From positions 1-16,314 of the IMG/VR virus record IMGVR_UViG_2547132273_000004: a stretch of DNA of 16,314 nt. One strand, written 5' to 3'. The notes under the pieces were generated by a model that was given only the letters and a program-made list of their open reading frames with translations, made no database searches and had not been told where the DNA came from. The DNA comes from a virus. Lineage: Duplodnaviria > Heunggongvirae > Uroviricota > Caudoviricetes. Of the stretch, positions 4,817 through 6,248 are shown piece by piece. A program made the position numbers and the translations under genes. Positions within the stretch are counted from its first letter, which is position 1. Each line of letters opens with the position of its first letter.

Positions 4817-4858
4817 TTCCCTTTATGGGAAATGAATCTATAATTCCCAAAGAGGGAA
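4817..4858 (+). promoter_or_regulatory. Putative autoregulated promoter of the toxin-antitoxin-chaperone cassette
   Basis: TATAAT at 4839-4844 flanked by two inverted repeats TTCCC-N5-GGGAA (4817-4831 and 4844-4858), about 12 bp upstream of the toxin ATG. Confidence 0.4.
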
Positions 4859-4870
4859 CAAAATCGGATT

Positions 4871-5158
4871 ATGAAGGTCTTAAACGTAGAGAAGCTTCAC
4901 AGTTTTAGCCGGAAGCACAATCAGGCCAAGGGGGCTTTAGACTCTTGGTATGATGAAGTGATAAGAGAAAACTGGAAAACGACTCAAGACATACGGAATA
5001 GATTTAATTCTGCCGACTTCCTTCCTAACAACAGGGTAATTTTTAATATAAAAGGCAATAACTATCGGCTCGTTGTCCAAGTTGTTTACCAGGCAGGAAT
5101 GGTCATAGTTGAAAGAGTTGGAACTCATGCAGAGTACGACAAGTGGAGGCTTAAATGA
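4871..5158 (+). CDS. HigB-family (RelE/ParE-fold) toxin
   Basis: 95 aa; C-terminal region NRVIFNIKGNNYRLVVQVVYQAGMVIVERVGTHAEYDK aligns with remembered E. coli HigB (KHYVFNVGGNELRVV...REVMTHKEYD); toxin-first gene order and 4-bp ATGA overlap with the next gene. Confidence 0.7.
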   Translation: MKVLNVEKLHSFSRKHNQAKGALDSWYDEVIRENWKTTQDIRNRFNSADFLPNNRVIFNIKGNNYRLVVQVVYQAGMVIVERVGTHAEYDKWRLK

Positions 5159-5811
5159 ATCGAACTAGCTGGCGCATCATTAAAAATAGTGAAGAGCATG
5201 CTGCAGCTATGGAAAGGCTCATTGAACTTGCGTCTAGTGATTTACAACCTGGAACTGAAGATTTTGATGAGTTTGAACTACTAGGCTTGCTTATCGAGCA
5301 CTATGAGTCACGCGAGTTCCCTATGGACAAGCCAGATCCCATAGAAGCAATCAAGTTCCGTATGGATCAACAAGGCCTCTCTTATGCCGATATGAAACAA
5401 TACATTGGCTCAGCATCTAAAGTATCTGAGGTCTTAAATCGTAAGCGTCCATTAAGTCTTTCAATGATCCGTAGACTACATGACGGACTTGGAATTCCTG
5501 CAGATATCTTAATTCAAGATATGAGCGCAATTGAATGGATCCTAGTTGACGCAGAGGAAGAAGAAACAGCCATGACTAGCGTCATTGCTCGGTGTGAGTC
5601 AGCCGTCACATCACCTTCTGCTTATTTCGCTGAAAAGGCTACAGAATCTTACTTTTCAAAAATGTTGTTCAGCGCAGTAAGGGGTAATGGCAAATGCAAA
5701 GAAAAACGGAATGTTTTTTCTTTGATAAGTAACTTGTCATCAAGTTTCACAGCGGCTAGCAACCTGAATGACGAAATGACTTCTGACGGAAATTACTTAT
5801 TATTACCATGA
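5155..5811 (+). CDS. HigA-like HTH antitoxin with about 85-aa C-terminal extension (candidate chaperone-addiction domain)
   Basis: 218 aa; residues 1-about 130 align with remembered E. coli HigA (MDQQGLSYADMKQYIGSASKVSEVLNRKRPLSLSMIRRLHDGLGIPADILI versus LMDQYGLTLSDLPEIGSKSMVSRVLSGKRKLTLEHAKKLATRFGISPALFI); the C-terminal about 85 aa has no HigA counterpart; ATGA overlaps at both ends. Confidence 0.7.
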   Translation: MNRTSWRIIKNSEEHAAAMERLIELASSDLQPGTEDFDEFELLGLLIEHYESREFPMDKPDPIEAIKFRMDQQGLSYADMKQYIGSASKVSEVLNRKRPLSLSMIRRLHDGLGIPADILIQDMSAIEWILVDAEEEETAMTSVIARCESAVTSPSAYFAEKATESYFSKMLFSAVRGNGKCKEKRNVFSLISNLSSSFTAASNLNDEMTSDGNYLLLP

Positions 5812-6212
5812 AAATTGAACTCATTAGCAAAAAAGTTGAACGCTTGGTTATGACACGGCTAGAAGGCGATTCAACAGCAAAAAAAGCCATAAAAACAACC
5901 GTTAATCTAAATAATGAACTTTACACTAATGTGAAGGATTCAAAGCTATTTAGAGTGAGATATTTTGCCTCCGTAACTATTGAAGGCAGGCTTGAGATGG
6001 ACATCACATACGACTTTGACTTCCGGTCAGAAGATGATTTTTCTCATGAAATGGCAAAATCATATGAGGTAAGGTCCATTGCTCCCAATATGGCATATCC
6101 CTATATAAAAACATATGCCGAGCAAATTATCCTCATGTCAAACCTTGGTAGGTTCACTCTGCCTTATTTTGATTTCTTGGCCAATCCCATGGAAACGAAC
6201 AGTAATAAGTGA
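5808..6212 (+). CDS. SecB-like chaperone (putative TAC chaperone)
   Basis: 134 aa; C-terminal segment IAPNMAYPYIKTYAEQIILMSNLGRFTLPYFDFLANP parallels the SecB motif [36 protein letters not shown]; third gene of the cassette, translationally coupled. Confidence 0.55.
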   Translation: MKIELISKKVERLVMTRLEGDSTAKKAIKTTVNLNNELYTNVKDSKLFRVRYFASVTIEGRLEMDITYDFDFRSEDDFSHEMAKSYEVRSIAPNMAYPYIKTYAEQIILMSNLGRFTLPYFDFLANPMETNSNK

Positions 6213-6221
6213 AATTCCCCA

Positions 6222-6248
6222 CCCGGCCTCAGCGCCGGGTTTTCTTTG
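6222..6248 (+). terminator. Rho-independent terminator after the cassette
   Basis: Stem CCCGGC (6222-6227) / GCCGGG (6234-6239), then TTTTCTTT. Confidence 0.7.

Follow-up and report, generated by a model that had tools for sequence, protein, structure and literature searches.

A HigBAC allele in the rexAB slot of a lambda-like Stx1a-converting prophage of Escherichia coli

The closest described counterpart of the locus analysed here is HigBAC of Escherichia coli NT1F31, a toxin-antitoxin-chaperone (TAC) system characterised by Mets et al. (2024; bioRxiv 10.1101/2024.02.24.581848; Cell Host Microbe 32:1059-1073, cited in PMC11980606). According to that work, the toxin HigB specifically blocks translation, and HigBA is toxic unless the chaperone HigC is co-expressed. 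Deletion of residues 122-218 of the antitoxin HigA, its ChAD, abolishes this dependence on the chaperone, and the ChAD aromatics W128, F158, F188 and Y214 are required, as is HigC R49. The system protects against lambda-vir as well as Bas25; phages that escape carry the substitution S54P in gpV. Lambda gpV is itself the trigger: residues 1-78 suffice, either S54P or W67A abolishes the effect, and peptides of gpV compete with the ChAD for binding to HigC. The NT1F31 locus was described downstream of cI, in the position of RexAB. We report here on a three-gene cassette of the same order found in a viral DNA stretch of 16,314 nucleotides (nt) (IMG/VR record IMGVR_UViG_2547132273_000004, positions 1 to 16,314; the whole stretch is hereafter called the window), which is a 100% match to E. 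coli N96 (NZ_CM169999.1:3348579-3364892) and whose + strand follows the leftward direction of lambda.

The cassette is a 99%-identical allele of HigBAC. The toxicity, addiction, defence spectrum, trigger and slot of that system have been published, and because a near-identical system in the same slot was characterised by Mets et al. (2024), the cassette has to be regarded as already known; taken alone, it extends the 2024 work in no respect. What is new here is in every case minor, and comprises the conservation of the operators as far as Serratia, a private S129I substitution in HigA, and the presence of their own trigger-type gpV in carrier prophages with lambda-type tails. We consider it very probable that the cassette is an anti-phage moron of the toxin-antitoxin-chaperone kind, borne by a lambda-like Stx1a prophage in its rexAB slot, and that it acts in the manner proposed below.

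Relation of the three genes to published HigBAC

The proteins of NT1F31 HigBAC (HigB WP_112844290, HigA WP_112844289, HigC WP_112844288) served as the reference for comparison. All three accessions are annotated in E. coli strains 10034940-2 and 15.03CC, which carry the exact published proteins, and this made an exact comparison of the window with the published system possible; in addition, NT1F31 higB, the opening 400 nt of the cloned region and numerous primers could be taken from the supplement of Mets et al. HigB of the window is identical to the published protein at 94 of 95 positions (I31 versus R31), HigA at 216 of 218 (I129 and R185 versus S129 and Q185) and HigC at 133 of 134 (A27 versus T27). 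Over positions 4735-6260 the window differs from the allele encoding the published proteins at 17 of 1526 nt. When the NT1F31 fragment and primers were mapped on the window, one mismatch fell in higB and two in the primer-covered part of higA, and the operator-promoter core was identical; the adjoining cI allele differs from the NT1F31 type (70% identity). The sequence traits that define the NT1F31 type are all present: near-identical proteins, location in the rexAB slot, and every mapped residue, namely the anchors W128, F158, F188 and Y214 of HigA at their published positions and the pocket residues Y39, N41, R49 and D71 of HigC.

A preliminary description of the window, made from its letters without database searches, had read the three genes as a HigB/RelE-fold toxin, a HigA-like antitoxin with an extra C-terminal tail and a SecB-like protein. 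Profile tests of all three open reading frames (ORFs) and a fold comparison for ORF3 support this reading. ORF1 matches the Pfam family HigB_toxin (PF09907, E=4.5e-30, 104 bits against a curated cut-off of 27) and the PADLOC profile PD-Lambda-2_A (E=2.5e-42), the solved E. coli HigB in the PDB matches it at E=1e-4, and its RefSeq entry, WP_000866443.1, is named 'HigB family toxin'. ORF1 falls in a type II toxin family, the first component of a TAC system, and by homology HigB would be a ribosome-dependent mRNA interferase.

For ORF2, the solved HigA structures 5ycl/5ifg match residues 53-119 (E=5e-5), and PADLOC PD-Lambda-2_B matches residues 5-127 (E=5e-50, profile positions 3-125 of 402); the Pfam helix-turn-helix (HTH) model HTH_3 reaches 20.9 bits, under its cut-off of 23. 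The homology to HigA stops near residue 120-127 and gives way to a C-terminal tail of about 97 residues (122-218), in which no family match was found. Comparison of four HigA homologues shows an N-terminal domain that hardly varies and a ChAD that diverges strongly, but whose four anchor positions are aromatic throughout. The antitoxin with a ChAD that characterises TAC systems is accordingly found in ORF2.

ORF3 matches the PADLOC profile PD-T4-9_C (the CmdC chaperone) at E=3.2e-11, and its own profile retrieved 120 relatives in a deep representative search, 17 of them under 1e-10. An AlphaFold (AF2) model computed on the homologue alignment (predicted local distance difference test 86.8, predicted template modelling score 0.80) has a four-stranded sheet and a long helix. 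Its best Foldseek match in the PDB is the Mycobacterium tuberculosis SecB-like TAC chaperone Rv1957 with a ChAD peptide (5mtw, E=5e-7, template modelling (TM) score 0.73-0.75), followed by the SecB proteins of E. coli (1qyn) and H. influenzae (1fx3), these top hits scoring TM 0.70-0.77; the top 19 matches are all SecB or SecB-like TAC chaperones (TM 0.66-0.77). Sequence identity is 12-17% to solved SecBs and 16-17% to Rv1957. The SecB fold of the third TAC component is thus predicted for ORF3. A housekeeping SecB (PF02556) was considered and rejected: the gene has neither a Pfam nor an NCBIfam match, and stands in a prophage operon instead of the yibN-grxC-secB-gpsA context.

The three co-directional genes of 95, 218 and 134 amino acids lie on the + strand exactly where they had first been seen (Table 1). 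Four-nucleotide ATGA start-stop overlaps link higB to higA (5155-5158) and higA to higC (5808-5811), and the same linked order of toxin, antitoxin and chaperone is found in Serratia marcescens, which bears out the TAC order initially proposed. Along the + strand of the window cI is followed by the cassette with its terminator, the pL region with N, and then cIII, kil, gam, bet, exo, xis, int, attR and the host gene ybhC; the - strand carries cro, cII, O, P, ren and ninB. With cI upstream and pL/N downstream, the cassette sits exactly in the rexAB slot of lambda, and the initial placement is confirmed. In N96 the entire element, located between ybhB/bio and ybhC (att-lambda), is an Stx1a-converting prophage whose head and tail genes are of the lambda type. 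Outside the window, stx1a (stxA1a, stxB1a) lies downstream of Q (positions 41370-42596 of the N96 locus, L002), so that in N96, a Tibetan pig isolate, HigBAC is carried at att-lambda by a Shiga-toxin-converting prophage.

The cassette had also been described as much more AT-rich than exo, bet and int. At 40.1% GC (higC 37.3%) it is so relative to bet (52.3%) and exo (52.6%), but the statement holds for these two genes only, since cI (45.0%), int (45.2%) and the prophage part overall (46.0%) are much closer to it; the stretches 7200-7800 and 13200-13600 of the window are even more AT-rich than the cassette.

Table 1. Features of the cassette and its flanks (window coordinates), and coordinates in other carriers of HigBAC with an intact gpV (coordinates of the respective loci)
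Feature	Position	Strand	Remarks and evidence
cI, LexA/S24-family repressor (S24 peptidase family)	4030-4734	+	directly upstream of the cassette
Operator palindrome 1, TTCCCTTTATGGGAA	4817-4831	+	putative site of HigA/HigBA binding, upstream of the -10 element
-10 hexamer TATAAT, perfect match	4839-4844	+	between both palindromes; candidate promoter of the cassette itself; lacks a good -35
Operator palindrome 2, TTCCCAAAGAGGGAA	4844-4858	+	abuts the -10 element
higB, 95 amino acids, HigB toxin of RelE fold	4871-5158	+	Pfam, PADLOC, PDB, RefSeq WP_000866443.1
higA, whole ORF, 218 amino acids	5155-5811	+	ORF call
higA, residues 1-121 (N-terminal part), Xre HTH antitoxin domain of the HigA type	5155-5517	+	PDB HigA, PADLOC
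higA, C-terminal part, residues 122-218, ChAD extension, anchors W128/F158/F188/Y214	5518-5811	+	published positions
higC, 134 amino acids, predicted SecB-like chaperone, putative phage sensor	5808-6212	+	PADLOC CmdC profile, AF2 model, Foldseek
Intrinsic terminator, 7-bp stem (6 G-C pairs), 6-nt loop, then TTTTCTTT	6221-6248	+	stem-loop 6221-6240
N peptide gene, pL region	6684-7067	+	downstream of the cassette; RefSeq start
Intact gpV with HigBAC, locus L008	26259-26999 / 47844-49185		
Intact gpV with HigBAC, locus L013	26588-27328 / 46845-48186		
Intact gpV with HigBAC, locus L005	24264-25004 / 48500-49841		

Proposed expression and action of the cassette

What could control the expression of the three genes? 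The TATAAT flanked by two palindromes that had been noticed ahead of higB is indeed present. Both palindromes are 15 bp long and follow the motif TTCCC-N5-GGGAA (TTCCCNNNNNGGGAA), which occurs twice in the 16.3 kb window, both times at this site, against 0.01 occurrences expected from shuffles. The pair bracketing the TATAAT is kept in the 95% allele of E. coli CUVM3, and also at the Serratia marcescens locus (L012), whose HigC is 63% identical: there the palindromes read TTCCCTTTGTGGGAA ... TATAAT-TCCCACAAAGGGAA, with different spacers and flanks. The operator pair is, then, conserved as far as Serratia. This conservation supports the interpretation of the palindromes as an autoregulatory operator, to which HigA would bind; autoregulatory operators are known for other HigBA modules (PMC11980606). 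At the other end of the cassette, the strong terminator anticipated there was recovered as a stem-loop followed by TTTTCTTT, with a folding energy of -13.7 kcal/mol (z = -2.8 against shuffles). It corresponds to the 'native terminator' cloned in the published NT1F31 construct, a primer of which matches at 6234-6251. No + strand terminator was found between cI and higB, which makes read-through from pRM plausible.

We propose that in the uninfected lysogen higB, higA and higC would be made together, being transcribed by read-through from cI/pRM and also from a promoter of their own at the TATAAT, on which the two palindromes probably confer autorepression, while the ATGA overlaps would couple their translation. 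HigA would neutralise the HigB RNase only as long as the HigC tetramer holds the aggregation-prone ChAD tail by its four aromatic anchors. Upon infection by a lambda-type siphovirus, the N-terminal region of nascent gpV would compete for the HigC pockets. HigA left without its chaperone would be inactivated, and the freed HigB would stop translation and so restrict the phage. That the cassette restricts phages had been suggested from its gene order and position; published experiments on an allele differing by one, two and one amino acids in the three proteins bear this out.

Several observations weigh against this account. ORF3 has no match in Pfam (SecB PF02556) or NCBIfam, and neither phmmer nor a 20-sequence profile found a SecB among the PDB sequences, the matches returned being chance ones (RPABC3 at E=0.09, thioredoxin at E=1.1). 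For this reason the link to SecB consists of the predicted fold and one defence-database profile: the likeness of ORF3 to SecB is upheld by the former (5mtw, TM 0.75) and by the CmdC profile, but not by the Pfam and PDB-sequence profile searches. No convincing -35 hexamer was found near the TATAAT, and hence a consensus promoter scan made no call at the site. The published defence assays employed the multicopy plasmid pBR322 with a Ptet promoter (bioRxiv 10.1101/2024.02.24.581848), so that for the native single-copy context both expression in the lysogen and defence by abortive infection are what we infer. The window allele departs from the experimentally tested one by four substitutions, which include S129I beside W128, and residue 129 is Ser in the Serratia protein as well as in the common (more than 1000 contigs), the published and the 95% alleles. 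Finally, the occurrence of trigger-type gpV in the resident prophage and its relatives, described below, does not fit easily with action on foreign phages only.

The substitutions bring up the alternative that the module of the window is a decaying or altered allele, for instance through S129I or HigB R31I, and no longer behaves like the published system. Four amino acid differences do separate it from the tested proteins. Of these, I129 (codon at 5539-5541), which follows directly upon W128, is private when set against the S129 allele: the exact HigA of the window has been recorded on one contig, of Escherichia sp. TW15838, and in strain N96. According to Mets et al. (bioRxiv 10.1101/2024.02.24.581848) the ChAD anchors usually precede a small residue. 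The host prophage is damaged, its tail tube gene being split by ISEc10. All three ORFs, their overlaps, the operators and the terminator are intact, however, and both HigB I31 and HigC A27 are common alleles in Shiga toxin-producing E. coli (STEC) of serogroups O26/O157 and in Stx phages (WP_000866443, WP_000687675). In the same preprint the single substitution W128A had no in vivo phenotype, so that little effect is to be expected from S129I, and a change from serine to isoleucine at the neighbouring residue is unlikely to abolish function. We give this alternative hardly any credence, and infer that the window allele is equivalent to that of NT1F31 in spite of its four substitutions.

Distribution and the gpV of carrier prophages

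Of 5426 complete E. coli genomes 88 carry the cassette, 83 of them with an identity of at least 99%, and it is also found in 30 phage records, which include BP-4795, ST2-8624 and many Stx1a and Stx2a-converting phages; O157:H7 86-24 and O26:H11 11368 are among the carriers. Diverged versions occur in Klebsiella, Citrobacter, Salmonella and Serratia, and in Serratia marcescens the same three-gene unit resides in a P22-like prophage. RefSeq usually names the products 'HigB family toxin', 'helix-turn-helix domain-containing protein' (in a few cases HigA) and 'hypothetical protein'. The identification is therefore useful as annotation, the antitoxin and chaperone going under generic names in the carriers. 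HigBAC probably shapes which lambdoid phages superinfect or are induced in STEC polylysogens.

The near-invariance of the cassette (83 of 88 carriers at 99% identity or above) and its travelling with Stx phages would also suit a different role, that of an addiction or stabilisation module which keeps the prophage and stx1a by post-segregational killing, defence being secondary or an overexpression artefact. The pairing of a stable toxin with a labile antitoxin in a type II module follows the classic logic of plasmid stabilisation, HigBA was first found as the stabilisation locus of Rts1, and the published defence data come from a multicopy plasmid carrying Ptet. Yet the trigger is highly specific, given that gpV S54P alone permits escape and that gpV peptides are bound directly by HigC. 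The slot is recognised as a variable locus for exclusion and defence genes, and a related TAC system defends in its native strain, as the deletion of PD-T4-9 in ECOR22 demonstrates. The two roles are not mutually exclusive, and we judge it improbable that stabilisation is the main one.

If the cassette acts as an anti-phage system triggered by gpV, what becomes of the gpV encoded by its own prophage? In N96, outside the window, the lambda V homologue is split after codon 171 by ISEc10, an insertion sequence (IS) of the IS21 family with istA/istB (L002 24062-27229, corresponding to NZ_CM169999.1 3327061-3330228). The product is 81% identical to lambda gpV, and its N-terminal fragment keeps W36, S54, DDED61-64 and W67. 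In the prophage that encodes the exact published HigBAC (strains 10034940-2 and 15.03CC) V is intact; the product is 98.8% identical to lambda gpV overall, and identical at 78 of 78 positions over the trigger fragment. Intact gpV is likewise encoded in EC12, whose HigB and HigC are identical to those of the window (98.8% identity to lambda gpV, 77/78 over the trigger fragment); coordinates of carriers with intact gpV are given in Table 1. The carriers BP-4795, O26:H11 11368 and 13E0725 encode an HK97-type tail tube protein that has no similarity to gpV and no gpV-like loop.

Two simple explanations fare poorly in this comparison. That the insertion in gpV provides relief from self-triggering is weakened by the intact trigger-type gpV of EC12, 10034940-2 and 15.03CC. 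These same three strains show that avoidance of lambda-type tails by HigBAC carriers, true for BP-4795, O26 11368 and 13E0725, is not general.

All four lambda-tailed carriers that were examined have annotated lesions, namely V::ISEc10 in N96, lysozyme::IS3 in 10034940-2, a frameshift in O in 15.03CC, and frameshifts in lom and a tail assembly gene in EC12; in three of the four a gene that lytic growth requires is hit. These lesions may represent ordinary prophage decay, the sample comprising four prophages and assembly errors being possible. A more far-reaching conjecture, which we put forward as speculative and rather unlikely, is that HigBAC is incompatible with the lambda-type late genes of its own carrier, so that there would be either an undescribed silencing or evasion at induction, or a lock-in favouring loss-of-function lesions. 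Were this true, HigBAC would drive prophage domestication besides defending against rivals, and the matter would bear on the coexistence of prophage-borne defences with the phages that carry them. The Discussion of the preprint by Mets et al. does not address self-triggering, and no later paper addressing it was found in the literature searched. It is the only lead here with some novelty.

Neighbouring genes and comparison with known systems

Several further genes of the window deserve mention. Upstream of the annotated start of N, the longest ORF begins at 6618 (6618-7067, 149 amino acids) as against the RefSeq start at 6684 (127 amino acids); within the long form it is residues 23-149 that match Pfam N_peptide, in agreement with the shorter start. 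Between N and cIII lie two AT-rich ORFs (35-39% GC), one encoding a 156-residue protein of unknown function (7126-7596, phrog_1636, no Pfam or PADLOC match) and the other a DUF2528 protein (7747-8115, phrog_646). They are possible further morons, since they stand at the site of accessory genes of the lambda ral/sieB type. Downstream of exo there is a phage N-6-adenine methyltransferase (10455-11012, PADLOC orphan methyltransferase, E=1.7e-31), an anti-restriction or orphan Dam-like gene of a kind typical for lambdoid phages. An Ea22-like protein (11669-12175) matches the PADLOC DpdH model at E=5.9e-38, its residues 57-155 aligning with positions 13-111 of the 127 in the profile. No further Dpd component is present, and the match probably reflects a shared Ea22-type domain, not a Dpd system; apart from this and the orphan methyltransferase, PADLOC scans of the neighbouring accessory ORFs returned nothing. 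Lastly, a 393-residue ORF with a TTG start spans 12015-13196, where RefSeq annotates a C-terminal DUF551 pseudogene fragment only (12981-13196); from 12177 on it is a patchwork of PHROG matches of unknown function, which suggests a mosaic or fused accessory gene.

Lambda RexAB, a two-component membrane-depolarising system, shares with the cassette the slot from cI to pL/N and, presumably, both a role in exclusion expressed in the lysogen and co-transcription with cI. There is no sequence or mechanistic relationship between the two.

PD-lambda-2 (Vassallo et al. 2022) resembles the cassette in its HigB-like first gene (E=2.5e-42) and in the HigA HTH that starts its second gene (E=5e-50), and it defends against lambda, as published HigBAC does. 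It differs in that its B protein has a C-terminal ImmA/IrrE peptidase, and in a third gene that is P4-antitoxin-like, not SecB. Membership of the cassette in PD-lambda-2 was rejected, given that ORF2 covers only positions 3-125 of the 402 of PD-Lambda-2_B and that ORF3 matches PD-T4-9_C and no component of PD-Lambda-2.

CmdTAC (PD-T4-9 of E. coli ECOR22, O112ab:H26) is a TAC defence system as well, and it is to the profile of its chaperone CmdC that ORF3 matches (E=3.2e-11); the preprint of Mets et al. (bioRxiv 10.1101/2024.02.24.581848) describes a working hybrid in which this chaperone is exchangeable with HigC. In contrast to HigB, the toxin of CmdTAC acts as an mRNA ADP-ribosyltransferase; the antitoxin, too, is unrelated. 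CmdTAC targets T-even phages, and its location is a P2-like prophage hotspot.

The M. tuberculosis TAC system HigB1-HigA1-Rv1957 has its toxin, antitoxin with ChAD and SecB-like chaperone in the same order, and Rv1957 (5mtw) is the best structural match of ORF3. The ChAD of the window is more than twice as long, with four aromatic anchors, and the inactivation of HigA in E. coli is independent of ClpXP (Mets et al.). The mycobacterial system has been described as stress-responsive, not as a phage sensor.

Closest of all is HigBAC of NT1F31. The prophage of the window is set apart as an Stx1a-converting mosaic in which an IS splits the gpV homologue (81% identity to lambda gpV). The cassette itself agrees with that of NT1F31 in its gene order, in lengths of 95, 218 and 134 amino acids, in the ATGA overlaps, the promoter-operator core and the terminator, and in its slot after cI of a lambdoid prophage.

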